This document shows, piece by piece, positions 7,822-55,303 of a stretch of 64,000 nt of DNA (its first letter is position 1; every line of letters starts with the position of its first letter). A program made the translations under genes and the position numbers. The notes under the pieces were generated by a model that made no database searches, was not told the DNA's origin, and saw only the letters and a list, made by a program, of their open reading frames with translations. The stretch lies in assembly GCF_058153355.1 (NCBI RefSeq), contig NZ_CM177019.1; one strand, given 5' to 3'.

Positions 7822-7997
7822 CAGTGGCAGTAGTTCGCCATCGGCTGCTGTCTCAGCACATCAGGCCGCAGCTCACGACCGCAACCGGCACACAATACAG
7901 GCGGGTCATACGCCGCCGGGCGGGGAATATCACGGGTATCCCCCTGCCAGAGTTCAGCGAGCAGCAGCGCCACCGCCCGGTTCTGGTCTTCGTTCAT
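7803..7997 (-). CDS. Mu gp24-position small zinc-ribbon protein
   Basis: ORF track 64 aa with CAGC...CHWC cysteine pairs. Confidence 0.5.
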   Translation of the reverse strand: MNEDQNRAVALLLAELWQGDTRDIPRPAAYDPPVLCAGCGRELRPDVLRQQPMANYCHWCRGAE

Positions 7998-9670: not shown

Positions 9671-9901
9671 TCACTGAATTTTCTGTACACAATATTTTTC
9701 CTTATAACGTTGGCAGTGGTGAAGAATTTCCGGCATATCAACCGACTGCCAGCCTTTCATGTAATAACTTCCGTGGGTGCCATCATGACCGGTATAGTCG
9801 CGGGGCGAAGGCCGTGGCCCACCGGCGACACGGTGTAAAACCTCCTGACGCAGCCGCTCACGTCTGCCAAGATGAAAGGATGCATTCCAGCCTTTACCCA
9901 T
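9671..9901 (-). CDS. Hypothetical small protein in the mor-C interval (uncertain coding)
   Basis: ORF track 76 aa; region should also hold the middle promoter Pm; overlaps a plus-strand ORF. Confidence 0.3.
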   Translation of the reverse strand: MGKGWNASFHLGRRERLRQEVLHRVAGGPRPSPRDYTGHDGTHGSYYMKGWQSVDMPEILHHCQRYKEKYCVQKIQ

Positions 9902-13169: not shown

Positions 13170-13694
13170 TTAAATACCGGCTTCCTGTTCAAACGGAATA
13201 ATGGAAAAATCTTCAATTCCCGATTTAACTGTAATTCCGGCAACACCTGCGACCGCTTTCGGTTCCAGTAAAATCGCTTCCTTGTTGATTTCCTGCTTCG
13301 TGCGAATAAAGCGTTGCAGGCCAAGACGCTCCAGCGTTTCCATCACTGCATCCATACCACGAATACTTACTGATGGTGGACGGACCCGCCACGATACATC
13401 ACCGGTGACAAGATTTGCCGTTTTCACTTTGCCGCCGTTTGTCAGTTCGTCGCGGTTCGCTTCACACCATCCCTGAACGCCTTTTGAAAGGGTTTCAATA
13501 TCGGTTTTAATCGGTGCAATCCGGGCTGCAAATTTCTCCGTAATTTCCGCGATGGCATCATTCATTTCCGTTTCCAGACGTGATGCTTCGCGCTGTAAGT
13601 CCCCGATGCGTTTAATATCGGTAATCACCGCATCGCGGTTTTGTGGCACATAAGCCGCTGCGGCACTTTTGATACGTTTTGCTGGTTTAGCCAT
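13170..13694 (-). CDS. gam: Mu Gam, DNA-end-binding host nuclease inhibitor (Ku-like)
   Basis: ORF track 174 aa, MAKPAKRIKSAAAAYVPQNRDAVITDIKRIGDLQREASRLETEMNDAIAEI... Confidence 0.9.
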   Translation of the reverse strand: MAKPAKRIKSAAAAYVPQNRDAVITDIKRIGDLQREASRLETEMNDAIAEITEKFAARIAPIKTDIETLSKGVQGWCEANRDELTNGGKVKTANLVTGDVSWRVRPPSVSIRGMDAVMETLERLGLQRFIRTKQEINKEAILLEPKAVAGVAGITVKSGIEDFSIIPFEQEAGI

Positions 13695-15210: not shown

Positions 15211-16149
15211 TTAATTACGCAGCAGCGTTAAAATATCAACGTCCAGGTCTAATTCACGGAAAGCCTGACGCAGATAATCTTCGTTAACACGCTCACCTTT
15301 ACCATGAGCCGTCATGGCGGCAAGGCGAAGCGAATGATTCAGAATGCGAAGCGCACCGGGTTTCTGTGCAATTTGCTGTAACAACTCCAGTTCTTTTTCG
15401 CCGTTAATATGCCAGGCATCCGCAATAGCTTTTACATCGGCTTTTTTGGTTTTATTAATTGCAGTGGGCTTTGCAATACGGGAAAACAGACGGGCAAATT
15501 CAACCGTTCTGTTGCCCCCCGTCATATTTGAATAAACGCGGTGATTGCCCATCAGCACAAGGCCAGTGCGGGTTGATTCCTGTAACAGGCGGAGTTCTTC
15601 CAGAGCTTCAGCACCAAGATGATCAGCTTCGTCGATGATAACCAGCCCCTGTGTACCTTCAAGGCGGCGTCGCAGGGCGCGGGAGAGCGGCCCTTTACGG
15701 CGTGGTGCGTCATTCATTCCCAGCTCAAACGCCAGTTCAGTAAGACATTCCAGAACGCTGGCACAGGATGGCGTAATGGTGATCATCCAGACATTGTTAT
15801 TGGTGCGGCGATATTCACGGGCCGCTTCGGTTTTGCCCACACCAGGATTGCCACATACAACAGCAATACTTTCAGTCAGGCTGGCAAAACGCATACTTGT
15901 CCAGATTTGTTTTACCGTCTGCGTTTCCACAAAGCGGGGCGGTTCCGGTAGTTCTGCGACTGCATGATATTTTTCCAACCAGCGTTGCAGTATTTGTGCA
16001 ACACGTTCGTTATCCCCGTTGTACTTATCATTGATAAAACTACTGATAGTCCCGGTAGAAAGTCCGCTCTCAAGGGCAATTTGTTTAAAGGTGGTTTCTT
16101 CATTTTCTACAAGGGTGCGCAGTCCTGCGCGAATATCTGAAATATTCAT
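15211..16149 (-). CDS. B: Mu transposition ATPase / target DNA activator MuB
   Basis: ORF track 312 aa, MNISDIRAGLRTLVENEETTFKQIALESGLS..., Walker A GNPGVGKTE. Confidence 0.95.
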   Translation of the reverse strand: MNISDIRAGLRTLVENEETTFKQIALESGLSTGTISSFINDKYNGDNERVAQILQRWLEKYHAVAELPEPPRFVETQTVKQIWTSMRFASLTESIAVVCGNPGVGKTEAAREYRRTNNNVWMITITPSCASVLECLTELAFELGMNDAPRRKGPLSRALRRRLEGTQGLVIIDEADHLGAEALEELRLLQESTRTGLVLMGNHRVYSNMTGGNRTVEFARLFSRIAKPTAINKTKKADVKAIADAWHINGEKELELLQQIAQKPGALRILNHSLRLAAMTAHGKGERVNEDYLRQAFRELDLDVDILTLLRN

Positions 16150-16187: not shown

Positions 16188-18179
16188 TTAAATGACTTTT
16201 TTACGTCTGTTCTGTTCCAGAATATCCAGCGAATGATTCAGATATTCATCACGCTCAGTTTCGTATTCATCATCACGCTCCTGATTCTTCACCCGTTCCG
16301 TATTACCGGAAGGCCGGAAAATGCTTACAATTCGTGATTCTGGTGCTTCAGGTTCGGCTATCTGCGGCAGCAGCTCTGCCACTTCCAGTGCATCCATTTG
16401 TTTCTGTGCCTTAATCGCTGCTTTCGTCGCAGATTTCAGTTGTTTCTGGCGGCGGCGATATTCACGGCCTGCCGCAGCATCATTAAACGCAACAGGTGCC
16501 AGACATTCCGCTTCACAGATAAACCGACCGTCCAGGGTGTAGCAATAAACCGTGCTGTGTAACTGCTGTGGATCAAATCTGACCACAACTTTTTTCACTC
16601 CGGCATTCATTAACGCCATGTTGTAATAAACGTTTTTCGCGCCTTTAAGGGAGCCGCCAACTTTAAGCGCGAACTCGCCTTTACGTGAAACGTTCACCGC
16701 CTCGGCAGGCAGTAACAGCATCCGTTTTTGCTCTTCGGTAGGCTTACGCACAATCGTTCTGGCGTATTCACGCTCAAAAACGTCATCAAACGAAAGTTTG
16801 CCCCCGCACATTTCTGTTTCTCGGCCTGTTCTGGCATTGAACATCGCCACACCTTCGGCAAGGGTTTTCAGAAACAGCTCTGCATCAACAGCGCGGTCGC
16901 CATAGTTATCAGGTTTTGCCTGCGGATTAGGCCCCGTATATGCGCCAGCCAGTGCCGGATGTTTATCAACGTATTCCTCAAGGCCACCAACACCGAAAGC
17001 ACGTTCTACAGGTTTTGCCTGGCCCCAGCCTTTACCGGCAACAACGCTTGTCCAGTGCATGGTCGCCCCCATCAGTAAAAACAGCCCCTTTGGATCGTCC
17101 TCTTTCACCTTAAAGCGGTAGCGATTGGGCGCGCCCCCCGTCAGCCATTTATTCGCAGCACCACGGGTGTTATCAATGGTGATGTGAAAATCCTCCGGGA
17201 TGCCGTAGCGTGTCACTACATCCATGAACGAGAGGCGAATTGAATCGATGTTCTCGCTAACATCGCAGCGCCAGCCCAGAATTTTTCGGGTTTTCACATC
17301 CTGCCAGAACCATGTTTTCGGGCGGATCACATCACCGTTAAACCAGCGTACAAAGACGTTATGCAGATAACCGTCGCCGTTGATCCACTGCATGGCGTCC
17401 AGGTGTTCCACAGTTCGTTGCTGTGCCGGTATCAGATGCATCAGTGCATGTTCACCTTCACGGCAGGCAACAACCATTGCCCCGTCCAGTTGCTGAATCC
17501 GGCGAAATGCCGTGGCTCGGGAGGGAATACTCCAGCCATGCTCGCGGGCTGCCAGTTCCAGACGCTCATAACATTTGCGGAAGGCGGGTTTTTCCGGTCG
17601 CAGATAATCTGCAATCAGAAACTGCCAGGCATCCTCGTCAAATTCACTTTTGTGAACATTGCGACGGGATGCTCCACGTCCATCAACAAGTGCAGCCGCC
17701 CAGTCAGGCTTCGCAAACTTCTGTACCTGGTAATACTTGTCCCGCAAAGTGGATGCGCTGACCTGGTAATGCCCTGCAACGGTCGCAAAAGCCGTTTTCG
17801 TTGAAATCCCCTGGTTCAGCATTTCGTCTGCAGCCTGAACCGCAGGCAACCATTTTTCAGCAAGTCTGCGCTGGGAATCGCTGGCGTTATCCCATTTGCT
17901 CCACAGTGCCTCACGATCATAATCATGGGCTTCCAGCGTGGGGCGGGCGATTTCAAAATACCCCTGACTTGTTTCAATCTCTCCTTGTCTCAGCAATAAC
18001 GCCGCTTTCGCTTCAACAGGTAAAGAGTTCGCATTGTATTCAATTGCTTTACCACCTTTGACACCTGCTCTAGTGCGGTTTTGCCATCCTTGCTTTTTAG
18101 CAACATAAATCACACCAGCCGATGTTTTCGGCAAACCAGGAAGATTCGCACACTCTTTCGGTGATACCCAAAGTTCCAT
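16188..18179 (-). CDS. A: Mu transposase MuA
   Basis: Track ORF 666 aa; canonical 663-aa MuA begins at [23 protein letters not shown] (ATG at 18179). Confidence 0.95.
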
Positions 18180-18180
18180 G

Positions 18181-18408
18181 TTATTCACCTGCTTGATATC
18201 GGCTAGGCCAGATTACTTCCGGTTTAGTTTCTAAGGCGTTAGCAATAATCTGCTCACCCTTTGGCCAGTGTCGTTCTAGCGCATTAGCTAATGTAGTTGG
18301 CGCATAACCGAACTGCCGGGAAAGAGCTGATAAAGAGAGCTTTCTTTTCTTAAGTCCCGCAATCACATCCGCTCGATGCCAATCACGGGCCTTTTCGTTG
18401 GAACACAT
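18181..18408 (-). CDS. ner: Mu Ner, early-transcription negative regulator
   Basis: ORF track 75 aa, [36 protein letters not shown]... Confidence 0.9.
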
Positions 18409-18577: not shown

Positions 18578-19168
18578 TTGAAAAGTAACTTTATAGAAAA
18601 AGACGATACTGAAAAGTCAATTTGGTGTTCGCCGCAAGAAATTATGGCTGCTGATGGTATGCCTGGATCTGTTGCTGGTGTTCACTATCGAGCAAATGTT
18701 CAAGGCTGGACGAAGCGAAAAAAGGAAGGTGTCAAGGGGGGGAAAGCTGTTGAATACGATGTGATGTCTATGCCCACCAAAGAACGAGAGCAAGTTATTG
18801 CGCACTTGGGGTTATCCACACCGGATACTGGTGTTCAAGCCAATGAGAAACAGGATTCTTCGGAACTGATAAACAAATTAACCACAACCTTAATCAATAT
18901 GATTGAAGAGCTGGAACCAGATGAAGCACGCAAGGCACTGAAACTTTTAAGTAAAGGGGGGTTGTTGGCGTTAATGCCTCTTGTATTTAATGAACAGAAA
19001 CTTTACAGCTTTATAGGATTTTCACAGCAAAGTATTCAGACGTTGATGATGTTAGATGCATTACCTGAAGAAAAACGCAAAGAGATTTTGTCAAAGTATG
19101 GGATTCATGAACAGGAAAGTGTTGTAGTACCTTCACAGGAACCACAGGAGGTAAAAAAAGCCGTATAA
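18578..19168 (+). CDS. c: Mu repressor c
   Basis: ORF track 196 aa, MKSNFIEKDDTEKSIWCSPQEIMAADGMPGSVAGVHYRANVQGW... Confidence 0.95.
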   Translation: MKSNFIEKDDTEKSIWCSPQEIMAADGMPGSVAGVHYRANVQGWTKRKKEGVKGGKAVEYDVMSMPTKEREQVIAHLGLSTPDTGVQANEKQDSSELINKLTTTLINMIEELEPDEARKALKLLSKGGLLALMPLVFNEQKLYSFIGFSQQSIQTLMMLDALPEEKRKEILSKYGIHEQESVVVPSQEPQEVKKAV

Positions 19169-19319: not shown

Positions 19320-19506
19320 TTGCAGTGTTTTTGTTTTTCGTATTTTGAATGAAACAAAAGCAATTTTTTACTATCTTTCGCGTTTCATTGATTAACGACT
19401 AAAATTTGCGCTACAGGCTTGCAAGCCCCACCAAATCTAATCCCATCAGATCCCGAATAATCCAATGTCCTCCCGGTTTTTTTCGTACTTCAAGTGAATC
19501 AATACA
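19320..19506. repeat. Mu left end (attL) with transposase binding sites L1-L3; terminus at 19506
   Basis: Sequence ...cccggtttttttcgtacttcaagtgaatcaataca is the reverse complement of the canonical Mu left terminus. Confidence 0.85.
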
Positions 19507-19540
19507 CCGGGTATGTCGTTATTCAATAAAGGTGCCTCGT

Positions 19541-20443
19541 ATGCAAATCACCAACATGCATTGCAGTGGACAAACCGTTTCACTTGCCGCGGGGGATTAT
19601 CACGCGACTATCGTGACGGTTGGTGCTGGTCTGGCTGAATTAACTTTTCAGGGTTGTCATTTAGTCATCCCGCACAAACCCGAAGAGATGCCGCTGGCGC
19701 ATCTGGGTAAAGTGCTTATTCCGTGGCCGAACCGGATCGCCAACGGCTGTTACCGCTATCAGGGACAGGAATATCAGTTACCCATTAATGAACATAGTTC
19801 AAAAGCCGCTATTCACGGGCTGCTTGCCTGGCGAGACTGGCAAATTAGCGAATTAACCGCCACCAGCGTTACCCTGACAGCTTTTCTACCGCCCAGTTAC
19901 GGCTATCCGTTTATGCTGGCTTCGCAGGTTGTTTATTCGCTCAATGCTCGCACGGGCCTTTCCGTTGAGATCGCAAGCCAGAATATTGGTACTGTGACCG
20001 CACCTTATGGTGTGGGTATTCATCCTTATTTAACCTGCAACTTAACATCTGTTGATGACTATCTTTTCCAGCTTCCGGCAGAACAGGTTTATGCCGTCGA
20101 TGAGCACGCAAATCCGACAACGCTTCACCACGTTGATGAGCTGAATTTAAATTTCACGCGGGCGACAAAAATAGCCGCGACAAAAATAGACCATACCTTT
20201 AAAACCGCTAATGATCTGTGGGAAATGACCATTACCCATCCACAGCAGGCGCTGTCGGTGAGTCTTTGTTCCGATCAACCCTGGGTGCAGGTTTATAGCG
20301 GCGAAAAATTACAGCGTCAGGGACTGGCAGTTGAACCTATGAGTTGCCCGCCTAACGCCTTTAATTCAGGTATCGACTTATTATTACTGGAACCAGGAAA
20401 AACGCACCGCCTGTTTTTTAATATTCACGGGCAGCACAATTAA
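19541..20443 (+). CDS. yihR: Aldose 1-epimerase family protein (sulfoquinovose mutarotase YihR-like)
   Basis: ORF track 19406..20443; the Mu end at 19506 lies inside that ORF, so the ATG at 19541 with AAAGG Shine-Dalgarno is used; GIHPYL epimerase-type motif; synteny with yihQPO. Confidence 0.8.
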   Translation: MQITNMHCSGQTVSLAAGDYHATIVTVGAGLAELTFQGCHLVIPHKPEEMPLAHLGKVLIPWPNRIANGCYRYQGQEYQLPINEHSSKAAIHGLLAWRDWQISELTATSVTLTAFLPPSYGYPFMLASQVVYSLNARTGLSVEIASQNIGTVTAPYGVGIHPYLTCNLTSVDDYLFQLPAEQVYAVDEHANPTTLHHVDELNLNFTRATKIAATKIDHTFKTANDLWEMTITHPQQALSVSLCSDQPWVQVYSGEKLQRQGLAVEPMSCPPNAFNSGIDLLLLEPGKTHRLFFNIHGQHN

Positions 20444-20503: not shown

Positions 20504-21379
20504 ATGGACTTTTTTACGTTATTTTCGCCAGATGGGGCCATGCTGGAAACAAACGTGGTATGTATCGTTATCGCGTTGATGTTTCTTTATACCTTTGTGG
20601 GGATATGCGCGGGATTTGGTGGCGGTTTAACCACCATGCCACTCGTCACGTTAATGCTCCCCGTAAAAATGGCAACACCACTTTCGGTAATTGTCGGCAC
20701 CGCAACCGCCTTGTACGCCACCTGGCTATCACGCAAAGAAACGGATTGGCGCTCGGCAATGGTGCTGATTATTTTCTCATTTTTGGGAATACCCGTCGGT
20801 TTATATGCGCTGTCATATTTACCCGACCATTTTATGAAAGTGGGCTTAGGTGGATTTCTTATCCTCTACTCCTTTTACAGCATGTTTATTCCTCGCTTGC
20901 CGATTTATGACCGTAACTGGATCGCCGCACCTATCGGCGCAGTAGCTGGCGCATTAGGCGCGGCGTTCTCAACCAACGGGCCGCCGATGGTTATCTACGG
21001 GATGCTGCGTAACTTAGGTCCGGCGGCATTTCGCGGCACTCTGAACGCTTTCTTCACCGCAAACAACATCGCGGTGATCGGCGGGCTGGCGACCAGCGGA
21101 ATTTTGACTGTTTCTATCTTTAAACTGGTGCTGTTTTGTATTCCCACCATGATCCTCGGTTCACTGATTGGACAATATGTGCATAAACGCATTTCGGTCA
21201 AAGTGTTTCGTGTGATGGTCTTTTTATTGTTGATTGCCTCCGGTTCTATGTTGATAAAAGGTGCGTTGGGAATTCCCGCCGCTGCCGCACTTCTGCCTCC
21301 GTTTACCTTGTTAGTTATACTGCAACTGGCATTTGGTAAAAAAGTGGCGGCAATCCGCCGGGCTGAAGAAAGTAAATAA
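20504..21379 (+). CDS. TauE/SafE (DUF81) family anion/sulfite exporter-like membrane protein
   Basis: ORF track 291 aa, multi-TM with duplicated glycine-rich motifs (GICAGFGGGLTTMPL; GAVAGALGAAFSTNGPP). Confidence 0.75.
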   Translation: MDFFTLFSPDGAMLETNVVCIVIALMFLYTFVGICAGFGGGLTTMPLVTLMLPVKMATPLSVIVGTATALYATWLSRKETDWRSAMVLIIFSFLGIPVGLYALSYLPDHFMKVGLGGFLILYSFYSMFIPRLPIYDRNWIAAPIGAVAGALGAAFSTNGPPMVIYGMLRNLGPAAFRGTLNAFFTANNIAVIGGLATSGILTVSIFKLVLFCIPTMILGSLIGQYVHKRISVKVFRVMVFLLLIASGSMLIKGALGIPAAAALLPPFTLLVILQLAFGKKVAAIRRAEESK

Positions 21380-26397: not shown

Positions 26398-26463
26398 AAA
26401 CAATAGCCGCTATGACCATCTACAGGGATGGCGGCCTTCCTACATATAAAAAATGGATTTAAT

Positions 26464-27156
26464 ATGAAAAAGTTAAATGCAATAATTTTATTATCCTCTC
26501 TGACTTCCGCATCGGTATTCGCAGGCGCATACGTCGAAAACAGGGAGGCATATAATCTCGCCTCCGATCAGGGCGAGGTTATGCTACGTGTGGGTTATAA
26601 CTTCGATATGGGCGCGGGTATCATGTTAACCAATACCTACAACTTTCAGCGAGAAGATGAACTAAAACATGGATATAACGAAATCGAAGGTTGGTATCCT
26701 TTATTTAAACCAACCGATAAATTAACCATCCAGCCCGGTGGCTTAATTAATGATAAGAGCGCCGGTTCCGGTGGTGCTGTTTATCTGGATGTTAACTACA
26801 AATTTGCCCCGTGGTTTAACCTGACGGTACGCAACCGTTTTAACCATAATAACTACAGCACAACCGATTTAAACGGTGATCTGGATAATAATGACAGCTA
26901 CGAGATTGGTAACTACTGGAACTTTATTATTACCGATAAGTTCTCATATACCTTTGAACCGCATTATTTTTATAATATTAATGATTTCAACAGCAGCAAT
27001 GGCACCAAGCATCACTGGGAAATCACTAACACCTTCCGTTACCGAATTAATGAGCACTGGCTGCCCTATATTGAATTGCGCTGGTTAGACCGCAACGTCG
27101 AGCCGTACCACCGCGAGCAAAACCAGATCCGTATCGGGACGAAGTATTTCTTCTGA
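26464..27156 (+). CDS. ompL: Outer membrane porin OmpL
   Basis: Track ORF 26428..27156; signal peptide MKKLNAIILLSSLTSASVFA; C-terminal YFF beta-barrel signature. Confidence 0.85.
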   Translation: MKKLNAIILLSSLTSASVFAGAYVENREAYNLASDQGEVMLRVGYNFDMGAGIMLTNTYNFQREDELKHGYNEIEGWYPLFKPTDKLTIQPGGLINDKSAGSGGAVYLDVNYKFAPWFNLTVRNRFNHNNYSTTDLNGDLDNNDSYEIGNYWNFIITDKFSYTFEPHYFYNINDFNSSNGTKHHWEITNTFRYRINEHWLPYIELRWLDRNVEPYHREQNQIRIGTKYFF

Positions 27157-27168
27157 TGTAAAAATGTA

Positions 27169-27198
27169 AAAAGCCGCTGATATTTAAGCGGCTTTTTA
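27169..27198 (+). terminator. Rho-independent terminator after ompL
   Basis: Hairpin aagccgct-gatattt-aagcggctt followed by a T-run. Confidence 0.7.
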
Positions 27199-27336
27199 CA
27201 CAGATATTCACAATATAAATAACTCCCCATAATTATATAACCGCGTTGATTATAAAATATTCCTCGTCCTCTCTATCAAAGTCATTGACTACCAGGTAAG
27301 ATCTTTTCCACTGCAACACTCACAAGGAATGAGAAA

Positions 27337-28185
27337 ATGGAAAAGAAATTTTTTATGGATTGGGATAATGAAATCCCGCAAGAAGAGTTTATTAACAATA
27401 TTTTAGCCGATGAAGACCTGCCTAAAATCCGCTCTCTGATTATTGGTCGTTGGGGGGAGTGCTGGGATGAGGAAAGTTGCCAACCAATAATCGACATGTT
27501 TGTTGAACATGCCGAACGCTTTGCTCATCTCGAATCCCTATTTATCGGCGATATGGAAAGCGAAGAGTGTGAAATTTCGTGGATAAAACAAGGGGATTAT
27601 TCTCGTCTGTATGCTGCGCTGCCGAACCTGAAAAAGCTGACAATTAAAGGTACTCAGGGCCTGGAACTGGGAGAAATCGCCCATGACAAACTGGAGCATC
27701 TGGAAATTATCTCTGGCGGTACGCCGTGTGACGTGTTCGCCTCATTGCAAAATGCCCAACTGCCTGCGTTAAAAACACTTATCGTTTATATTGGCGTTGA
27801 GAATTATGGTTTTGATGCATCGCTGGATATCGTAATGAAGCTGGCGTCGAAATCCCTCTTCCCGAGCCTGACGCATCTTGGCCTGGTGAACAGCGAAGAG
27901 CAAAACGAAATCGTCCGCCGCGTGCTGGAAAGCGACATTCTGCCGCAACTGGAAGTGCTGGCACTCTCCTGCGGTACGCTTACCGACGAAGGTGCAGAGC
28001 ATCTTCTCAAACATGCCGATCGCCTTAGCCATCTGAAACTGCTGGATTTGTACCATCATTACCTGACAGAAGAGATGCAGAAAAAACTGCAAAAAACACT
28101 GACATGTACTCTCGAATTATCAGAAGCGCTAACGCCTGAAGTCTATGATGACGAAATTTATATGCATGCGATGTATACCGAATAA
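27337..28185 (+). CDS. Leucine-rich-repeat (ribonuclease-inhibitor-like) cytoplasmic protein; first gene of non-K-12 operon
   Basis: ORF track 282 aa; repeated LxxLxxLxL units (LPNLKKLTIKG, LEHLEIISG, LPALKTLIVY, FPSLTHLGLVN, LPQLEVLALSCGTLTDEGAEHLL, LSHLKLLDL); AAGGA Shine-Dalgarno. Confidence 0.7.
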   Translation: MEKKFFMDWDNEIPQEEFINNILADEDLPKIRSLIIGRWGECWDEESCQPIIDMFVEHAERFAHLESLFIGDMESEECEISWIKQGDYSRLYAALPNLKKLTIKGTQGLELGEIAHDKLEHLEIISGGTPCDVFASLQNAQLPALKTLIVYIGVENYGFDASLDIVMKLASKSLFPSLTHLGLVNSEEQNEIVRRVLESDILPQLEVLALSCGTLTDEGAEHLLKHADRLSHLKLLDLYHHYLTEEMQKKLQKTLTCTLELSEALTPEVYDDEIYMHAMYTE

Positions 28186-29232
28186 ATGACATTTATTGGG
28201 AGAGAGTCATCTCTCCCATTATTTATCACAGAAAAGGAATTCTTCGTGATTACGCTAATTGGTCATCCTGAAAGCAAACGCACATTTTATTTTTGCCAGG
28301 CAGCGTCACGCTTACAGGAACATATCAACGTAGTGAGCTATGATCAAGCACTTACCCTGCTCTTAAATAAAGGCATGGTAAAAATCGATCCCCCCTTACA
28401 TCAGGAAACAGATATTCGCTTAATTAATACGGTTAGCCAAAACTATATTACTTTTTTACAAAAAATGGCTACCAGAAGGGAGATCCGTTTTATTAACTCA
28501 CCAGAAGGTATTATTCATCTTCTGGATAAACGCCACTGTAAGCAACGATTAGTCGAACACGCGATCCCGACACCGCCAATATTAGCGGATGATATCCGTA
28601 GCTACGATCAACTGATCGCCTGTATGCGCAGCGAAAAGGTTTATCGCGTGTTTATTAAGCCGAATTTCGGATCAGGGGCCGCCGGGGTGCTGGCTTTGAG
28701 TCTACATCCCGGCGATAACCGTCAGGCGCTTTATTGCGCCATCCAGGTTGCAGGTGACAGGCTGGTGAACAGTAAACATATTATCCGCTATGAAAACAGC
28801 GGTGATATTACGTTGATTGTGAATGCTATTTTACAACAAGACAATATTATCGAACGCTGGCTGGCAAAAGCCAGAGTGGGCAATAAAAGCTACGATTTAC
28901 GCATAGTGTACGTTAATGGTGAAATCGTCTGGCGGGTTGTCAGAACATCATCACAGCCGATCACCAATTTGCATCTGCAAAATGAAGCCATTCGTTTTGC
29001 CGATCTTAATTTACCCGCAGAAAAAGTGGCTGACATTGACACGCTTTGTCTCAACGCCATGAAACTCTACCCGGACGTACACATTGCCGGGCTTGATGTA
29101 TTACTCACGCAAAACTTAACCCCCTATATTATCGAAATTAACGGCCAGGGCGATCTTATTTATCAGGACACCTGCGAACAAAATATGATTTATCAACGCC
29201 AGATTCAGGTAATGAGAGAACACCATGTATAA
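28186..29232 (+). CDS. ATP-grasp ligase, RimK-like
   Basis: ORF track 348 aa; KPNFGSGAAGV and EINGQGD ATP-grasp motifs; alternative GTG start at 28246 with AAAGGAA Shine-Dalgarno. Confidence 0.75.
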   Translation: MTFIGRESSLPLFITEKEFFVITLIGHPESKRTFYFCQAASRLQEHINVVSYDQALTLLLNKGMVKIDPPLHQETDIRLINTVSQNYITFLQKMATRREIRFINSPEGIIHLLDKRHCKQRLVEHAIPTPPILADDIRSYDQLIACMRSEKVYRVFIKPNFGSGAAGVLALSLHPGDNRQALYCAIQVAGDRLVNSKHIIRYENSGDITLIVNAILQQDNIIERWLAKARVGNKSYDLRIVYVNGEIVWRVVRTSSQPITNLHLQNEAIRFADLNLPAEKVADIDTLCLNAMKLYPDVHIAGLDVLLTQNLTPYIIEINGQGDLIYQDTCEQNMIYQRQIQVMREHHV

Positions 29233-30097
29233 CGTAACAGACGAAGTCCCGGAAAATACCCGCACGGCAATCCATTCCTGCGATGGCGAAATCAATATGA
29301 ATGATTTGATAGCCAGGGAGGCGAATGTTCTGTTTGTAGTGCTTGATTCCCTGCGTTTTGATATTGCGTTTCAGGAACAAGAGGCGGGCAATACGCCGAA
29401 CATTAACCGCTATGGTCGCTGGATAAAGTGCGAAGCCGCTGGCAATTTTACCTGGCCTTCGCATCATTCGATGTTTTCTGGTTTTATGCCTAAGCCGCTG
29501 GAAGCCGCACCGGGCCATTCAATGCTCTTTTTTCCCAAAGATATTGGCTTAGGGCGTTTAGGGCCAAAAAATGCATTCGCATTCAGCGAAGAGACGTGGA
29601 TTAAAGGGCTGGAAAACAAAGGTTACCGCACTATCTGCGTGGGTGGCATCTCCTTTTTTAATAACCGCTCAGGGATGGGAAAAGTGTTCCCGGCGATGTT
29701 TAAAGAGAGTTACTGGTATCCTAATTTCTCCTGCACGGTGAAAGAGAGCATGGATAATCAGCTCACCTTAATTAACAAAAAGGTGAACGCTGAACAGCCG
29801 CTGATGATGTATATCAATATCGACACCATTCATTATCCGAATCATTTTTATATTGAAAATGCCAAACCTGGCGATACGGTAGAAACTCACGCCGCTGCCC
29901 TGCATTATATTGATGCCAGAATCGAAAAACTTTTCGATATCTTTCGGCAAACCGGGCGGGAAACGTTAGTTATTCTCTGTTCCGATCATGGCACCTGCTA
30001 CGGGGAAGACGGTAAATATTTCCACAGTTTTAACCATCCGATTGTGAATACCGTACCCTATTTTCACTTTGTGTTAGACGGCAAAGACCATGAATAA
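29225..30097 (+). CDS. Alkaline-phosphatase-superfamily metalloenzyme, type I phosphodiesterase / nucleotide pyrophosphatase (NPP)-like
   Basis: ORF track 290 aa; VVLDSLRFD metal-ligand motif, NFTWPSHHSMFSG (Thr nucleophile context), C-terminal CSDHG. Confidence 0.65.
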   Translation: MYNVTDEVPENTRTAIHSCDGEINMNDLIAREANVLFVVLDSLRFDIAFQEQEAGNTPNINRYGRWIKCEAAGNFTWPSHHSMFSGFMPKPLEAAPGHSMLFFPKDIGLGRLGPKNAFAFSEETWIKGLENKGYRTICVGGISFFNNRSGMGKVFPAMFKESYWYPNFSCTVKESMDNQLTLINKKVNAEQPLMMYINIDTIHYPNHFYIENAKPGDTVETHAAALHYIDARIEKLFDIFRQTGRETLVILCSDHGTCYGEDGKYFHSFNHPIVNTVPYFHFVLDGKDHE

Positions 30098-31232
30098 TGA
30101 ATCGATTTATCAGCAATATATGTACAGTTACCCGCATAAGACCGCTTATCGGGAATTAAACAATATTGCTTTTGCGGATGTGAAATCGCGTATTTACGAG
30201 CATAAAACACATCTCTATATTCATATGCCTTTTTGCCAGAGCCGCTGCGGGTTTTGTAATCTCTTTACCTGCACGGGGGCAGACAATGCCTTTATCGACA
30301 ACTACATAGAAGCAATTATTATCCAGGCCCGGCAAATGCAACTTGCGCCTGTAGACTGGGCCAGTTTTACCATTGGCGGCGGTACGCCACTACTGCTTAA
30401 TACCGGGCAACTGTCACGGTTGTTTCGCGGGGTGTTTGACGAATTACAGGTCGATGCGCAGATTTTTAAGGCAATTGAAACATCGCCTTCCGATACCACC
30501 GCCGAAAAGGTCGCGTTATTGCGCCAGCTTGCGGTAAGCCGCGGCAGGGGTAATTTCCCGATAATCAATATTGATATTATTTACGGTATTCCTGGTCAAA
30601 CAGCCGCAAGTTTAATGGCGTCGCTTAATCAGGCATTAGATTATCAGCCTGACGAACTTTTTTTGTACCCGCTGTATAACATGCCGCGCCAGCCGGATAT
30701 GTATAGCCTCTATATTGAAGCCCGCGATCGCTTATTGCATGAAGGTTATACGCAAACGTCAATGCGCCGTTTTGTGCGGGTGAATAATGAGTCGACGGCT
30801 GAAAGTTGTGGCTTTGAAAATTCGCTGGCGCTTGGCGCGGGCGGGCGCAGTTATCTTGGCAATTTACATTACTGCACGCCGTGGTCGCAAAACCAGCCCG
30901 CATCGCGGCAAATTGTCACGGATTTTATCGCCCGGCCAGATAAGACCCAGATTCACCACGGCTATGTACTTTCACAAGCAGAAATGAAGCGGCGTTTTAT
31001 TATCAAGAATCTCTTTTTCTATAAGGGGCTTTCGTTACGGGATTATCAGCATCAGTTCTTCTCTGAGGTATTAAGCGATTTTCCCCTGCTGGGAGATTTC
31101 ATCAAACAAGATTACTGCCACCAGCAGGATAATCGTATTCTGCTCACCGCGCAGGGTTTAGCGCTTTCGGACCAGCTTGGCCCGCTGTTTATCTCCCCGG
31201 AAGTTCGCAGGCTGGAGACGCATAAACGATGA
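30090..31232 (+). CDS. HemN-like radical SAM enzyme (HemN/HemW/class C rSAM methyltransferase family)
   Basis: ORF track 380 aa; YIHMPFCQSRCGFC CxxxCxxC motif, FTIGGGTP, IDIIYGIPGQT; parallels hemN in this window (YVHIPFCHKLCYFC). Confidence 0.8.
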   Translation: MNNESIYQQYMYSYPHKTAYRELNNIAFADVKSRIYEHKTHLYIHMPFCQSRCGFCNLFTCTGADNAFIDNYIEAIIIQARQMQLAPVDWASFTIGGGTPLLLNTGQLSRLFRGVFDELQVDAQIFKAIETSPSDTTAEKVALLRQLAVSRGRGNFPIINIDIIYGIPGQTAASLMASLNQALDYQPDELFLYPLYNMPRQPDMYSLYIEARDRLLHEGYTQTSMRRFVRVNNESTAESCGFENSLALGAGGRSYLGNLHYCTPWSQNQPASRQIVTDFIARPDKTQIHHGYVLSQAEMKRRFIIKNLFFYKGLSLRDYQHQFFSEVLSDFPLLGDFIKQDYCHQQDNRILLTAQGLALSDQLGPLFISPEVRRLETHKR

Positions 31233-32086
31233 CGCTCAAGCAGATCCAGACGCTGATTTATCGCGGCGAGATAAAGTCGTGTAATTATCGCTGTGGTTAT
31301 TGCCCTTTTCATAAACAAGACCGCAATGATAAACAGCAGGATGAAGTGGCATTATGGCGCATGGTTGAACATTTACCGGCGCTGGGTTCACCATTAAATG
31401 TATTTATTACGCCCTACGGCGAAGCATTGCGTTATCGTTATTATATGGCGGCGATGGCGGAAATCAGCCGCTATTCCCATGTGCAGGCGGTGGGTATTCA
31501 GACCAACGCCTCTTTTAATTTATCCACCTTAGTCGCGACTTTTCAGCACTCTCAGGGCGATTTAGCAAAGCTGCGGCTGTGGTGTTCGTTTCATCCTTCC
31601 CAGGTCAGTAAAGAAGTTTTCCTTAAACAGTTACTGGCAATTAAGGACACGGGGATTACCTGTTCTGTGGGGGCCGTCGCCAGCGTAGCCGACTATGACG
31701 AATTACAGTGGTTACGCGCGCATCTTCCTCCCGATATCTATTTCTGGCTAAACGCCAATGAGCGCGATAAAAGGCCCACCAGCGACGAAAGAAATAGCCA
31801 GTTTCAGTTGCTGGACCCGCTTTATTATCTGGAAACCAGCCTCTGGCCTGCCAATGTCGAGTTTTGTCTGGGCGGCAAAAAGAGCGTGTTTATGAATGCT
31901 GATGGCGATCTCTTCGCCTGTAATATCAGCAAAATTAAGATTGGCAATTTATATCAACAGCAACTTTCATCTCCGGCTTGTATGTCCAGGCACTGTCACT
32001 GTTATCTGGCTTATCACCTGCGTGAGGATATTCCGGCCCTCTCACAATTTGATGCTGAACGCTGCTTTCGGATCTTCTCGTTATGA
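31229..32086 (+). CDS. Small radical SAM-like protein with viperin-like cluster motif
   Basis: ORF track 285 aa; N-terminal CNYRCGYCPFH (CxxxCxxC); C-terminal cysteines CNISK...CMSRHCHC; ATGA overlap with the upstream gene. Confidence 0.55.
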   Translation: MTLKQIQTLIYRGEIKSCNYRCGYCPFHKQDRNDKQQDEVALWRMVEHLPALGSPLNVFITPYGEALRYRYYMAAMAEISRYSHVQAVGIQTNASFNLSTLVATFQHSQGDLAKLRLWCSFHPSQVSKEVFLKQLLAIKDTGITCSVGAVASVADYDELQWLRAHLPPDIYFWLNANERDKRPTSDERNSQFQLLDPLYYLETSLWPANVEFCLGGKKSVFMNADGDLFACNISKIKIGNLYQQQLSSPACMSRHCHCYLAYHLREDIPALSQFDAERCFRIFSL

Positions 32087-32778
32087 TCTGGCGGTTAATC
32101 GCGCTCGATTTAGACGGCACATTGCTGAACAGCAAGAAGATGATTTCCCCTGCGTCTGTTTCGGCACTGCAAAGCGCACAACAGGCAGGTGTGAAGATTA
32201 TCCTTGCCACCGGACGTTCGCACAGCAAAGCCCTGCCTTATTACCAACAATTGCAGTTAACCGAGCCGATGATTTGCTGTAACGGCAGCTATCTTTATCA
32301 TCCGCGCCAGCGGCAAATATTGCGTCCGCTGGCGCTTGATATCCACAAGGTGGAACAACTACGACTCTGGTTTTCACAACAAATATTGCAGCCAAATATT
32401 TATACGTACGATGATTTTGTTTTGCAGATTAGCCTGATACACCGCAAGACTTCGTTATTGCGCCAGACAGAGGAATTTGCCCGGCAAGAATTATCGCTGG
32501 CCTGTAGCTGGTCCTGGCATCATCAACTGGATATTACTCAGGCGGGGTGCGATAAAGGCAAAAGTCTGCTCTGGTATGCCCAGCAGCAAAATATCGCGCT
32601 GGATGAAATTATTGCCTTTGGCGACAACGATAATGATGCGGGGATGCTGCGGATGGTAGGCAAAGGGATTGCGATGGGCAATGGCAGTTCGCTGGCAAAA
32701 GTCAGTGCTGACCGCGTTATTGGTCACAACAACACAGATGCTATTGCGGATTTTCTTGATGCGCAGGGTTTCAGATGA
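32083..32778 (+). CDS. HAD-superfamily Cof-type (IIB) phosphatase
   Basis: ORF track 231 aa; LIALDLDGTLL (DxDGT) and FGDNDNDAGM motifs. Confidence 0.8.
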   Translation: MIWRLIALDLDGTLLNSKKMISPASVSALQSAQQAGVKIILATGRSHSKALPYYQQLQLTEPMICCNGSYLYHPRQRQILRPLALDIHKVEQLRLWFSQQILQPNIYTYDDFVLQISLIHRKTSLLRQTEEFARQELSLACSWSWHHQLDITQAGCDKGKSLLWYAQQQNIALDEIIAFGDNDNDAGMLRMVGKGIAMGNGSSLAKVSADRVIGHNNTDAIADFLDAQGFR

Positions 32779-32821
32779 CGCCTGATGCGATGCTGGCGCA
32801 TCTTATCAGGCCTACAAAAGC

Positions 32822-32851
32822 AAAAAACCTGCCATCGCTGGCAGGTTTTTT
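32822..32851. terminator. Bidirectional Rho-independent terminator between the island operon and typA, next to a REP-like element
   Basis: aaaaaacctgccatcgctggcaggtttttta hairpin flanked by A- and T-runs. Confidence 0.75.
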
Positions 32852-32868
32852 ATGACTAAAAAACGAAA

Positions 32869-34692: not shown

Positions 34693-34843
34693 AACTTTGC
34701 CTCAGGCATTAGAAATAGCGCGTTATTGTACACGGATTAATCGCACTACAAAACAGGATCACAAACATCCTCCGCAAACAAGTATTGCAGAGTCCCTTTG
34801 TGATCGCTTTCACGGAGCATAAAAAGGGTTATCCAAAGGTCAT

Positions 34844-34981
34844 TGCACCAATATGGTGCTTAATGTTTCCATTGAAGCACTATATTGGTGCAACATTCAC
34901 ATCATGGTGCAGCCCTTTTGCACGATGTTAAGCATGATAACGCCTTTTAGGGGCAATTTAAAAGTTGGCACAGTTTTCGCT
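34844..34981 (+). promoter_or_regulatory. glnA upstream region: NtrC enhancer sites and sigma54 promoter glnAp2
   Basis: TGCACCAATATGGTGCT at 34844..34860, further GCAC...GGTGCA half-sites, and TTGGCACAGTTTTCGC -24/-12 element at about 34965..34980. Confidence 0.8.
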
Positions 34982-39341: not shown

Positions 39342-39470
39342 AGCTCGTTGTTTATGCCGGATGCGGAGAAAGTCGTAGGCCTGATAAGACGCGACCAGCG
39401 TCGCATCAGGCATCATGCTCAGATGCCGGATGCAGCGTAAACGCCTTATCCGGCCTACAAAAGCAATAAT
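39342..39470. repeat. REP (repetitive extragenic palindromic) elements
   Basis: gccggatgcgg...cgcatcaggc and cgccttatccggcctac REP-type palindromes. Confidence 0.7.
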
Positions 39471-39569: not shown

Positions 39570-40943
39570 TTAAATCACCCGTGAGAACTGCTGCATCCGC
39601 GCTTTCTGGCGCAGATAGGTATCAAAGCACATGCAAATGTTGCGGATCAGCAGGCGACCTTTCGCCGTTACCTGAATCCCCTTCTCATCCACATCCACCA
39701 GCCCATCTTTTGCTAACGGGGCAAGCAGCTTGAGATCTTCTGCAAAGTAGTCAGCGAAGAGCAAATCCCACTGTTGCTCAATAGGGGCGTAATCCAGACG
39801 GAAGTTGCAGATGAGCGACTTAATCACATCGCGGCGAATACAGTCATCACGCGTTAGCGCAATACCACGCCACAGCGCATTGCCTTGTTCATCCACTTGC
39901 TGATAGTACTGCTTCAACTCTTTCTGGTTCTGCGCGTAGCAGTCGCCAATCATGCTGATGGCGGAAACGCCCATCCCCAGCAGATCGGTATCGCCCTGAG
40001 TGGTGTAGCCCTGGAAGTTACGATGCAGCACGCCTTCACGCTGGGCCACCGCCAGCTCGTCATCCGGACGGGCAAAGTGATCCATACCGATAAACTGATA
40101 GCCCGATTGTGTCAGGAAGGCGATGGTTTCCTGCAGGATATCCAGTTTTTGCTGTGGACTCGGCAGGTCAGCATCTTTGATTTTTCGCTGAGCAGCAAAA
40201 ATGGTCGGCAGATGCGCATAGTTAAAGACGCTCAGACGATCGGGGTTCAGCTCCGCCACGCGTTTCAGGGTAAAAGCGAAACTCTCCGGCGTCTGTTTCG
40301 GCAGGCCGTAAATCAGGTCGATGTTGGTGGAGGTAAAGCCAATCTCACGCGCATGGTTAAGCAGTGCAAAGATGAACTCTTCATCCTGCTCGCGGTTAAC
40401 CAGACGTTGCACTTCTTTATTGAAGTCCTGCACGCCCATGCTCAGGCGATTAAAGCCTTCGGCGCGTAAATGATCGAGTACATCCAGTTCGATTTCCCGC
40501 GGATCGACTTCGATCGAAATCTCCGCATCGGCATTGAACTGGAAGTTTTCGCGCAGCAGCTTCATCAGGCGGCTGATTTGCGCTTTGTTCAGATACGTCG
40601 GCGTACCACCGCCCCAGTGCAATTGGCTGACGTGACGCCCGGCGAACAGCGGTGCACGATGGACGATTTCTTGCTCCAGTGCGTCCAGATACTGATCGGC
40701 CTTGTGCTGCTGGCGAGTAACAATCTTATTGCAACCGCAGAAGTAACAAAGCTTATGGCAGAACGGGATATGTACGTAGAGAGATAATGGACGCTCAGGA
40801 TAGCGCGCCACGGCTTGTAAAAACGCCTGTTCGCCGAAGTCTTCTGAAAACTCCAGCGCGGTTGGGTACGAGGTGTATCGTGGCCCGGAATAGTTATATT
40901 TCTGGATCAGGGCCAGATCCCAGTCGATTTGCTGTACAGACAT
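39570..40943 (-). CDS. hemN: Oxygen-independent coproporphyrinogen III oxidase (radical SAM)
   Basis: Track ORF 39570..40949; MSVQQIDWDLALIQKYNYSGPRYTSYPTA...; CxxxCxxC motif. Confidence 0.95.
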   Translation of the reverse strand: MSVQQIDWDLALIQKYNYSGPRYTSYPTALEFSEDFGEQAFLQAVARYPERPLSLYVHIPFCHKLCYFCGCNKIVTRQQHKADQYLDALEQEIVHRAPLFAGRHVSQLHWGGGTPTYLNKAQISRLMKLLRENFQFNADAEISIEVDPREIELDVLDHLRAEGFNRLSMGVQDFNKEVQRLVNREQDEEFIFALLNHAREIGFTSTNIDLIYGLPKQTPESFAFTLKRVAELNPDRLSVFNYAHLPTIFAAQRKIKDADLPSPQQKLDILQETIAFLTQSGYQFIGMDHFARPDDELAVAQREGVLHRNFQGYTTQGDTDLLGMGVSAISMIGDCYAQNQKELKQYYQQVDEQGNALWRGIALTRDDCIRRDVIKSLICNFRLDYAPIEQQWDLLFADYFAEDLKLLAPLAKDGLVDVDEKGIQVTAKGRLLIRNICMCFDTYLRQKARMQQFSRVI

Positions 40944-41131
40944 GCTCACTCCTTCCGATGGCGTCTCTGGCGGCTACGGCGTACCGGCGGATGCCCGTTT
41001 CGAGTCATCAGCCGGTTGCGCAGCCACTTTTGTCGCCGCGACAACCGCTGTAGTTTAACGAATAACCACACCAGATAACATATAACCGGAAGGGTTATCA
41101 GCAGAACGGGAAGGCCCACGGCGGCAATCCG

Positions 41132-41641: not shown

Positions 41642-41704
41642 AATGGTTCGTCTTTTAGCCGTTTTATTCAGTATAGATTTGCGGCGGAATCTAACAGAAA
41701 GCAA

Positions 41705-41952
41705 GCAAAGAAAAAAGGCGACAGATTACTCTGTCGCCTTTTTTCCTGACTCATAACCCTTAACGGGTCTTACAATCCTTGCAGGCCGCCAACACACCCT
41801 GTTTTTCCATTAGCCGGAACAATCCGTGTTGATTCCATTTCCGTTTAATTACGTCTCCGGACGTTTGTCTTCCTGACAATCCTCTGTCTTCGCCTCCTGG
41901 CGCTCCTGACCCTCATCCTGAGTCATTGTTCCTGTTAGCGTCCTCGCTCTAT
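41705..41952 (-). ncRNA. csrC: CsrC sRNA (CsrA-sequestering)
   Basis: Minus strand from 41952 reads ATAGAGCGAGGACGCTAACAGGAACAATGACTCAGGATGAGGGTCAGGAGCGCCAGGAGG... with multiple GGA motifs; terminator hairpin at 41711..41744. Confidence 0.85.
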
Positions 41953-42980: not shown

Positions 42981-43089
42981 TAAAAAACGCCCCAGTCATT
43001 ACTGACTGGGGCGGCTAAAATATTCAGCCAAATCCGATTACGTGAAGTAAAAGGTCTGAAAGATAGAACATCTTACCTCTGTACCCTAC
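42981..43089 (-). ncRNA. spf: Spot 42 sRNA
   Basis: Minus strand reads GTAGGGTACAGAGGTAAGATGTTCTATCTTTCAGACC...GCCCCAGTCAGTAATGACTGGGGCGTTTTTTA, the canonical 109-nt Spot 42 with its terminator. Confidence 0.95.
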
Positions 43090-43236
43090 GCGACTAACTT
43101 TACTCTTTTTTGTTCAGTTCAGAAAGCATTTTTTGTAATTTTTTTTCAGTTGTTGCATAGGAATTTCTAATAGCCATCACAAAACGTGACAGCTTATGTT
43201 GCTTACTTACGAAAAAAGGGCATGTTCAGGCGAATC

Positions 43237-52398: not shown

Positions 52399-55303
<2,905 letters not shown>

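Follow-up and report, generated by a model that had tools for sequence, protein, structure and literature searches.

The six-gene cluster at positions 27337–32778, between ompL and typA in the 64,000-nucleotide window analysed here (contig NZ_CM177019.1 of RefSeq assembly GCF_058153355.1), is the catalogued STM4015–STM4014–STM4013–STM4012–STM4011(+HAD) cassette ('STM4010–STM4015'), to which no function has been assigned. The existence of the cassette is already known from NCBIfam names, from the annotation produced by the Prokaryotic Genome Annotation Pipeline (PGAP), and from one Protein Data Bank (PDB) entry. What our analysis adds is that the leucine-rich repeat (LRR) protein STM4015 and the ATP-grasp ligase STM4014 form the core of the cassette, that a near-invariant C-terminal Glu of the former is paired with a LysX/RimK-type fold in the latter, and that gene fusions unify the other enzymes. 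We propose, with a probability of about 40%, that STM4014 ligates a group onto the C-terminal tail of STM4015, after which radical S-adenosylmethionine (SAM) enzymes and phosphoesterases would tailor the product.

Families were assigned with the NCBIfam hidden Markov models (HMMs), which carry curated whole-protein cut-offs, and five of the six products exceed the cut-offs of the STM4015, STM4014, STM4013, STM4012, and STM4011 models. Four of these five models are typed 'hypothetical equivalog', meaning conserved and of unknown function, and the STM401x families are defined by homology and neighbourhood only; PGAP gives the same STM401x names in close Escherichia coli relatives. A preliminary description of this DNA, made from the sequence alone, had called an LRR protein, a RimK-like ATP-grasp ligase, an NPP-type phosphodiesterase, a HemN-like radical SAM enzyme, a second small radical SAM enzyme, and a Cof-type HAD phosphatase, and HMM matches and motifs support all of these calls. 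Its statement that the set corresponds to no characterised pathway also holds, given the typing of the NCBIfam models and the lack of functional literature: full-text searches with locus tags, the PDB code, domain combinations, and DUF names found no publication on the function of the cassette. Its genes are mentioned only in passing in two Salmonella genome-wide studies, which report a σ54 holoenzyme ChIP-chip site inside STM4013 (intragenic and antisense) and a positive-selection signal for STM4015 in serovar Typhi (PMC3844500, PMC2784778).

The cassette of Salmonella Typhimurium LT2, STM4010–STM4015, has the same gene order, the same position between ompL and typA, and the Cof-type HAD gene in last place. 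The STM4012 protein of the window lacks 32 residues and is otherwise ~60–77% identical to its enterobacterial orthologs. In homolog alignments the catalytic motifs are kept in all cassette enzymes. The five families, which make up a co-oriented cluster in the window, follow one another in the same order in E. coli, Salmonella, Superficieibacter, Firmicutes, Deinococcus, and Streptomyces.

The first gene (27337–28185, + strand) encodes a 282-residue STM4015-family LRR protein (NF038076, 323 bits against a cut-off of 275) with an isoelectric point (pI) of 4.6 and the tail ...EIYMHAMYTE. Pfam LRR matches to this protein are faint, and AlphaFold2 predicts a confident LRR solenoid (pLDDT 91, pTM 0.91), in which strands at residues 268–275 anchor the tail and the last two residues have a pLDDT of 47. 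The top structural match is PDB 2RA8 (45% identity, TM 0.86), a structural-genomics target from Bacteroides fragilis (Q64V53) deposited as 'uncharacterized protein', which is a solved member of the STM4015 family and ends in ...YPMITE. The crystallised protein differs from the E. coli protein in an N-terminal extension of ~80 residues; relatives such as P0071 have a WGR domain there.

The C-terminus of STM4015 is strikingly uniform. A terminal Glu is present in 257 of 266 diverse family members (97%), the tail consensus of the same set is [Y/W]-R-Y-V-A-V-[S/G/T]-E, and an alignment of the relatives with ~50% identity shows an invariant M-x-T-E end. The protein is also strongly acidic, with a family median pI of 4.5. 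Many members carry additions at the opposite end, namely WGR, TPR, or internalin-type LRR domains or large unknown domains. Furthermore, two or three tandem STM4015 paralogs are found in a Defluviitaleaceae metagenome-assembled genome (MAG; locus L078, 1116–3756), in Deinococcus (L099, 5957–7822), and in Streptomyces (L100, 5914–7837); the tandem copies precede the enzyme genes, and all keep a ...[V/I/L]-[T/G]-E C-terminus. We propose this acidic protein as the acceptor or carrier of the system.

The second gene (28246–29232, + strand) encodes a 328-residue, RimK/LysX-like ATP-grasp ligase of the STM4014 family (NF038074, 335 bits against a cut-off of 175) and starts with GTG. The LRR and ATP-grasp genes had been described as directly abutting at 28185/28186, which proves to be an artefact of taking the longest open reading frame (ORF). 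Specifically, the PGAP start at GTG 28246 lies 60 nt past ATG 28186, and the first residue of the long ORF to be covered by the family profile is residue 23. In a cross-genus alignment, ATG 28186 is deleted in Superficieibacter and GTG/ATG-ATT-ACG-CT is conserved (with ATG in Superficieibacter); the Salmonella gene has the same GTG-ATT-ACG start.

STM4014 has a conserved catalytic set comprising K138, GSGAAG, E203, D217-L-R219, D284, and E297-x-N299, and gives weak HMM matches to RimK, MptN, LysX, and CofF. In Foldseek the top matches are structures of ArgX/LysX with LysW and of RimK with the ribosomal protein S6 (RpsF); for 3vpb the E value is 5.6e-13 and TMt is 0.76. ArgX/LysX and RimK both attach an amino acid to a protein at its C-terminal Glu. 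A profile built from 24 STM4014 sequences and searched against PDB sequences found a Ddl as its best match (E 5.6e-4) and did not reach RimK. In an HHalign alignment the invariant R219 of STM4014 falls on R189 of RimK. The equivalent Arg (RimK R189, LysX R173, TTL R202) binds the residue at the acceptor's C-terminus (PMC10375531).

We compared 82 loci to define the anatomy of the cassette; L numbers denote individual loci. The order LRR, ATP-grasp, hydrolase, HemN-like radical SAM, radical SAM is found in ~56–60 of them and is held wherever enough sequence is present; in L006 the order is permuted with unchanged content. The LRR/ATP-grasp pair occurs in isolation amid housekeeping genes in L029, L064, L090, and L091, and pair-only taxa include several Eubacterium-type MAGs and two Chloroflexi/Acidobacteria-type genomes (L090 and L091). 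Next to one distant LRR relative, the STM4014-family gene starts 2 nt later. Because the pair occurs alone, we regard it as the core of the system and the other three or four enzymes as an extension. The LRR protein, treated as an add-on in the preliminary description, thus belongs with the ATP-grasp ligase in the conserved core.

Gene fusions tie the other cassette enzymes into one pathway. Most Firmicutes, including L003, encode STM4011 and a Cof-type HAD as one fused protein, and so does L006, a TonB-encoding and presumably Gram-negative genome. Since the HAD is fused to this radical SAM protein elsewhere, the stand-alone HAD gene of the window belongs to the cassette as well; L089, Deinococcus, and Streptomyces have all five families without it. 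In L045 (a Hungatella MAG, 1157–3064), a 635-residue ORF combines full-length STM4014 with full-length STM4013, which could be a genuine fusion or the result of a lost stop codon or a sequencing error. Neighbourhood clustering of the 82 loci found no other consistently linked gene and no conserved defence, integrase, or transposase genes; a hybrid histidine kinase lies beside the cassette in 18 loci, which are related to each other.

The third gene (29225–30097, + strand) encodes an alkaline-phosphatase (AP)-superfamily enzyme of the STM4013/SEN3800 family, similar to NPP enzymes and phosphoethanolamine transferases (NF038075, 350 bits against a cut-off of 250). D17, GNFT(52)xPSH, and SDHGTCYGEDG..H are conserved in 59 homologs and correspond to a metal-ligand Asp, a Thr-x-P-S-H nucleophile motif, and a C-terminal DHG...H motif; Pfam matches to an identical protein are Sulfatase and, weakly, Phosphodiest. 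From these motifs STM4013 is predicted to be a Thr-nucleophile enzyme rather than a formylglycine sulfatase, as Thr at the nucleophile position would require no formylglycine. A pairing of a sulfatase with an anaerobic sulfatase maturase was considered and rejected, as the nucleophile is Thr and not Cys or Ser. The last gene (32083–32778, + strand) encodes a 231-residue Cof-type HAD-IIB phosphatase with a short cap (TIGR00099, 182.6 bits against a cut-off of 137), whose translation contains DLDGTL and GDNDND, in line with the catalytic motifs DxDGT and GDxxND; the same HAD gene is present in the Salmonella and Superficieibacter cassettes.

The two radical SAM genes lie between the phosphoesterase genes. 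The STM4012-family gene (30090–31232, + strand; NF006067, 425 bits against a cut-off of 380, with the match in two stretches) carries a 96-bp in-frame deletion, described below. The family shares its motifs with the HemN-like class C enzymes (HemN, HemW, ChuW, NosN, and NocN), specifically an N-terminal YxxYP, CxxxCxxC followed by F, GGGTP, RxSxGxQSF, and NxDxIYGxPGQ, whereas the barrel of the window copy is truncated. The STM4011-family protein (31229–32086, + strand; NF038073, 299 bits against a cut-off of 200) has the motif CNYxCxYCPF and a C-terminal Cys-rich, putatively SPASM/twitch-like domain with five conserved Cys residues. Its Pfam matches to Radical_SAM and SPASM are weak (PF13186, E 0.0039), and no solved relative was found.

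The uniform tail of STM4015, its acidity, its pairing with STM4014, its tandem copies, the LysX/RimK-like structure of STM4014, and the position of R219 together lead us to propose that STM4014 acts on the C-terminal Glu of STM4015. STM4015 would then serve STM4014 as a dedicated protein partner, in all likelihood as acceptor substrate or as carrier. In a first step, which is moderately supported, STM4014 would activate the terminal Glu carboxylate as an acyl-phosphate and ligate to it an amine, either an amino acid or an amine-bearing metabolite, as LysX/ArgX does on LysW and RimK on S6. In a second and speculative step, four enzymes would tailor the tethered group or the tail itself. In particular, STM4012 would perform HemN-like two-SAM chemistry, either C1/methylene-radical transfer or decarboxylation, STM4011 would act as an auxiliary-cluster radical SAM enzyme with a fused or adjacent HAD phosphatase, and STM4013 would serve as a Thr-nucleophile phosphodiesterase or phosphotransferase. 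The enzyme set points to a phosphorylated intermediate, and the AP-superfamily enzyme, the HAD, and the fusions suggest that a phosphodiester is converted to a phosphomonoester and then to a hydroxyl on the same substrate. HemN-like enzymes use two SAM molecules to generate a methylene radical for C1 transfer or decarboxylation (PMC10114718). The end product would be the modified LRR protein or a released small molecule, and since the cassette encodes no releasing peptidase, the modified LRR protein itself may be the product.

Two known systems resemble this scheme. In the LysW/LysX pathway, ligation takes place at a C-terminal Glu carried by a flexible tail, and the downstream enzymes work on the tethered substrate. 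The likeness to LysW/LysX (ArgX; PDB 3VPB, 5K2M, and 3VPD) lies in a RimK/LysX-class ATP-grasp enzyme encoded beside an acidic protein ending in Glu. However, LysW is a 54-residue zinc ribbon with an EDWGE tail, whereas the protein here is a 282-residue LRR solenoid ending in Y-x-x-x-[S/T/G]-E, and the cassette lacks homologs of LysZ, LysY, LysJ, and LysK and has instead two radical SAM enzymes, an AP-superfamily enzyme, and a HAD. STM4014 also lies outside the LysX HMM family, LysX/ArgX being top-ranked by fold only, and its ligation activity is a prediction. RimK-dependent glutamylation of S6 (PDB 5ZK6 and 7QYS; PMC10375531) is similar in the ATP-grasp fold, in sequence affinity, in the aligned Arg, and in an acceptor that ends in Glu, but differs in that the acceptor proposed here is an LRR protein dedicated to the ligase and encoded with it, not a component of the ribosome, and in that extra tailoring enzymes are present.

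Several observations weigh against the proposed ligation. The Arg of the DLR motif, shared by many ATP-grasp enzymes, is not discriminating. STM4014 scores far below the cut-offs of the characterised ligases (38 bits against 143.4 for RimK TIGR00768, a further difference from the RimK–S6 system, and 31 against 275.6 for LysX TIGR02144). An AlphaFold2 co-fold of the ATP-grasp protein joined to the LRR protein by a (GGGGS)6 linker predicted no docked complex and did not raise confidence in the tail (pTM 0.53, tail pLDDT ~70), in what is a test weak in either direction that used a monomer model and 17 paired sequences. The cassette encodes neither a hydrolase nor a peptidase that would release a product. 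The conserved tail is partly β-strand (268–275) in the model, and its conservation may in part reflect structural capping. Finally, in L078 the LRR genes are followed directly by the hydrolase gene, with no ATP-grasp gene within the 5-kb contig.

A rival reading is a conventional small-molecule pathway, in which STM4014 joins two soluble metabolites and the other four enzymes make or recycle a phosphorylated compound (a cofactor, a nucleotide, or a sugar derivative), with the LRR protein as a scaffold, chaperone, or regulator only. Enzymes of these kinds are typical of small-molecule metabolism, small phosphoesters are the usual substrates of Cof-type HADs, the fusion of a radical SAM protein to a HAD suggests a small phosphorylated substrate, MptN and CofF of the RimK clade act on cofactors, and the co-fold gave no LRR–ligase interface. 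We nevertheless consider such a pathway rather doubtful, because it leaves unexplained the stand-alone LRR/ATP-grasp pair, the 97% terminal Glu of the LRR protein, the multiplication of the LRR gene in tandem, and the fact that the nearest ATP-grasp structures are those of ligases acting on protein C-termini. Peptide-derived cofactors offer another precedent, with PqqA as the precursor of pyrroloquinoline quinone and MftA as that of mycofactocin. By analogy with peptides that ribosomes synthesize and that are modified after translation (RiPPs), the LRR tail, with Tyr at −6 and Glu at −1, would be a precursor that both radical SAM enzymes modify or cross-link, with the ATP-grasp enzyme as an auxiliary. 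As in PqqA/PqqE and MftA/MftC, the gene for a radical SAM enzyme with a Cys-rich, putatively auxiliary-cluster domain lies next to one whose product ends in a conserved Tyr/Glu tail, and the conserved aromatic residue and terminal Glu of that tail, the weak SPASM match and five conserved C-terminal Cys residues of STM4011, the multiplication of the precursor-like gene, and the hairpin that follows it (see below) all fit. Moreover, HemN-like NosN links a C1 unit to a Glu carboxylate (PMC10114718). This role of the tail is still unlikely. The tail is equally conserved in pair-only loci, which have neither radical SAM gene; a short precursor peptide, an RRE-type chaperone, and a peptidase for release are all missing from the cassette; the SPASM evidence is weak (E 0.004); and the supposed precursor is a folded 280-residue protein whose conservation between phyla (~50% identity) far exceeds what a leader would require.

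The preliminary description had also suggested a nucleotide-based anti-phage module. In such a system the LRR protein would sense an invader and the enzymes would make a toxic or signalling nucleotide derivative. Variable N-terminal domains on the LRR module, the patchy, accessory occurrence of the cassette in E. coli, and an nSTAND NTPase/TPR gene adjoining it in L003–L005 could be read in this sense. The six proteins have no match in PADLOC-DB v2 at E ≤ 0.01, however, the neighbouring genes are unconserved and mostly housekeeping (the nSTAND gene is present in at most 5 of the 82 loci), the chromosomal locus is stable and syntenic across genera, the LRR protein evolves slowly (dN/dS 0.11, ~50% identity between phyla), and true plasmids and phages almost never carry the family. 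Defence is the least supported of the roles that had been put forward, and we consider it very unlikely. A role in anaerobic haem or porphyrin metabolism, implied by the old annotation of STM4012 as 'coproporphyrinogen III oxidase', is more improbable still. By sequence, the nearest protein of solved structure is HemN (1OLT; E 1e-26), and HemN, HemW, and ChuW HMMs give weak matches; yet the class C methylase NocN is almost as close as HemN, the partner enzymes are unfit for haem chemistry, the curated name is now 'STM4012 family radical SAM protein', and a genuine hemN lies elsewhere in the window (39570–40949). With HemN TIGR00538, whose cut-off is 325 bits, the window protein reaches 82 bits and an intact homolog 135, and STM4012 falls below the cut-off of every characterised subfamily, so that the haem biosynthesis annotation was rejected.

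In its fuller form, which we offer tentatively as one possibility, the ligation model makes STM4015 a new kind of carrier or scaffold, on whose Glu an amine-bearing, phosphate-containing building block would be loaded and then remodelled on the protein. The outcome would be a novel modification of a protein C-terminus or a small molecule made on a protein template. Such a system would be widespread, ranging from Salmonella and gut Lachnospiraceae to Streptomyces and Deinococcus, and the WGR, TPR, and LRR domains at the N-terminus would direct the modified protein to its site. If the model is correct, the carrier and C-terminal-ligation chemistry of LysW and S6 would be extended to a new carrier fold with radical SAM tailoring, and thousands of 'STM401x family' proteins would gain a role; otherwise, the system has no known analogue. 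Comparative anatomy turns a list of odd enzymes into a concrete, testable hypothesis for a cassette that is carried by Salmonella, by some pathogenic and commensal E. coli, and by many gut Firmicutes, and of which one member has been crystallised.

The preliminary description had overlooked a 96-bp in-frame deletion in the HemN-like gene. The gene is 1143 bp long (380 residues), as opposed to 1239 bp (412 residues) in all close relatives. Protein and DNA alignments with intact E. coli alleles place the junction at 30543/30544, with GCG microhomology, and the 32 lost residues (NRVSIGxQSF…LELLR) include the family-invariant RxSxGxQSF of the radical SAM barrel. The allele is no assembly artefact, because five independent public contigs, all with this arrangement of six genes, encode an identical 380-residue STM4012. 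Judging from the lost motif, the product is probably inactive and the HemN-like step dead in this lineage; without a barrel strand and helix, functions that need STM4012 are probably lost here. The other five genes (LRR, ATP-grasp, hydrolase, STM4011, and HAD) are intact and near-identical in length to those of relatives, and the LRR/ATP-grasp core could still be functional. The operon of this genome is thus real and probably crippled at one step.

The six genes form a single co-directional, translationally coupled operon that is absent from K-12 and takes the place of yihLMN. The ORF list contains all six + strand ORFs of the preliminary description (27337–28185, 28186/28246–29232, 29225–30097, 30090–31232, 31229–32086, and 32083–32778), and the gene order of K-12 MG1655, bipA(typA)-yihL-yihM-yihN-ompL with yihLMN on the typA strand, confirms that the operon occupies the yihLMN slot. 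The coordinates of the four overlaps on which the claim of tight packing was based are likewise correct (8 nt at 29225/29232 and 30090/30097, 4 nt at 31229/31232 and 32083/32086), although the overlap at 29225 is uncertain: the first 24 codons of that ORF lie outside the STM4013 profile, which starts at residue 25, Met25 (29297). The region had been called AT-richer than its flanks, and this is true, to a modest extent, relative to typA (46.3% GC against 53.2%) and not relative to ompL (41.8%) or yihO (44.5%); the GC content of the window is 50.3%.

The 60-nt spacer between the LRR and ATP-grasp genes (28186–28245) contains a stem-loop directly 3′ of the LRR stop codon (28197–28218, + strand), with a 9-bp G+C-rich stem (ΔG −20.7 kcal/mol, z −3.1) followed by a T-rich stretch. 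The hairpin is conserved in E. coli, Salmonella, and Superficieibacter with differing stem sequences and z of about −3 in each (L096, ~8855–8880; L008, ~9835–9855). It may be a partial terminator or an mRNA stabiliser, and its position after the LRR gene is consistent with an excess of LRR transcript, which, like the tandem copies of this gene, would fit a substrate-like role of STM4015.

Sequence inspection and scans for terminators and repeats agree with the boundaries proposed earlier. On the left, the cassette is bounded by the bidirectional ompL terminator hairpin (27164–27201), which has a perfect stem of 14–15 bp and T-runs on both strands. On the right lie a repetitive extragenic palindromic (REP) element (32780–32816) and a bidirectional terminator (32821–32852) shared with typA. 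No integrase and no direct or inverted repeats of note flank the cluster. The non-coding region upstream of the LRR gene (27202–27336, + strand) presumably holds the promoter and 5′ untranslated region. Its best σ70-like match, at 27207–27236, is weak (9/12) and does not exceed the chance level, and pattern searches upstream of the LRR gene found no FNR box and no σ54 promoter. The ORF list (minimum 20 residues) contains no small + strand ORF in 27202–27336 or between the cassette genes.

The cassette is an accessory module in E. coli: among 5426 complete genomes it was detected in 157 (~3%), always at the ompL/typA locus, and the remaining genomes match the REP/terminator only. In Salmonella and Superficieibacter, too, the cassette lies at the ompL/typA junction. 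Comparisons of E. coli lineages give dN/dS values of 0.03–0.23 for the six genes (0.11 for the LRR gene), and dS is higher in the cassette (0.10–0.26) than in typA (0.04–0.06). The shared locus in Salmonella and Superficieibacter and the purifying selection point to an old alternative cassette that is maintained by recombination, not to a recent insertion. The suggestion that the locus of this strain was replaced by horizontal transfer is therefore not upheld; the replacement between the cassette and yihLMN may have gone either way. Compared with its closest relative, L001, the cassette shows a mosaic pattern of divergence, with a dS of 0.005 for two genes and 0.07–0.14 for others, which indicates recombination. 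The adjacent ompL gene (26428–27156) is unusually divergent among cassette-bearing E. coli lineages, with a dS of 0.26–0.60 compared with 0.04–0.06 for typA.

Beyond the Enterobacteriaceae, the cassette recurs in Firmicutes, Bacteroidota, Deinococcus, Streptomyces, and Chloroflexi-type genomes, and in all covers at least six phyla. STM4015 relatives with ~50% identity are found in Lachnospiraceae and Clostridia. A pattern scan returned at least 424 species-level genomes with STM4015, a lower bound, as Salmonella and E. fergusonii encode the protein and were not returned. An exhaustive profile search gave 4,890 cluster representatives, 966 of them at E < 1e-30; among the taxa matched are Chloroflexi, Acidobacteria, Actinomycetota, Deinococcota, cyanobacteria, and Bacteroidota. 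In true plasmids and phages the family is all but missing, the plasmid matches being chromids or mis-labelled chromosomal contigs. Records labelled as phage (MW715619.1/NC_073189.1, 3–647; OR851113.1; OR845944.1) contain Salmonella-type STM4015 fragments with 73–75% identity to the protein of the window, also in the record labelled Escherichia. These fragments lie at record ends or in tiny unannotated records and are most likely host DNA, either transduced or contaminating. Given these matches and the lack of flanking repeats, a mobile element was rejected.

Some genes adjoin the cassette in single lineages or scattered genomes. The nSTAND-type NTPase gene with TPR lies directly downstream of the cassette in L003–L005 (15960–18875), which represent one Lachnospiraceae lineage; it is split in two in L003 and L005 and intact, with 971 codons, in L004. 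A DUF6745 gene flanks the cassette on the − strand in three unrelated genomes (L089, 13831–14844; L099, 11948–12949; L100, 4228–5295) and is absent from the enterobacterial and Firmicutes cassettes. Two of the three DUF6745 proteins have N-terminal XopL-like LRRs, and a search for literature on DUF6745 found none. In L089 alone, a gene for a CobB-like NAD-dependent protein deacylase (sirtuin; 7240–7968) lies on the same strand and ends 33 nt before STM4015, with a NUDIX gene nearby.

Elsewhere in the window, positions 1 to ~19300 are occupied by a Mu-like transposable prophage, whose repressor end adjoins yihR (aldose-1-epimerase, 19406–20443). Its genes include those for the repressor (18578–19165, + strand), the transposase (16188–18188, − strand), a MuB-like protein (15211–16149, − strand), and Gam (13170–13694, − strand), and similar elements are found at other sites in 98 of the 5426 E. 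coli genomes. The prophage has probably displaced or split the upstream sulfoquinovose genes (yihS–yihW). Between yihR and yihQ, a 291-residue ORF (20504–21379) matches in position the TauE/SafE-family (sulfite exporter-like) gene of the Salmonella yih cluster, which indicates that the sulfoquinovose locus is here of the Salmonella type and not of the K-12 type. Rfam searches identified ES222 (34774–34881, between typA and glnA), naRNA4 (39378–39455), CsrC (41699–41952), and Spot 42 (42981–43099), all on the − strand, and a complete rrn operon with two tRNAs (52188–57291, − strand); these RNA genes are the expected E. coli core context.

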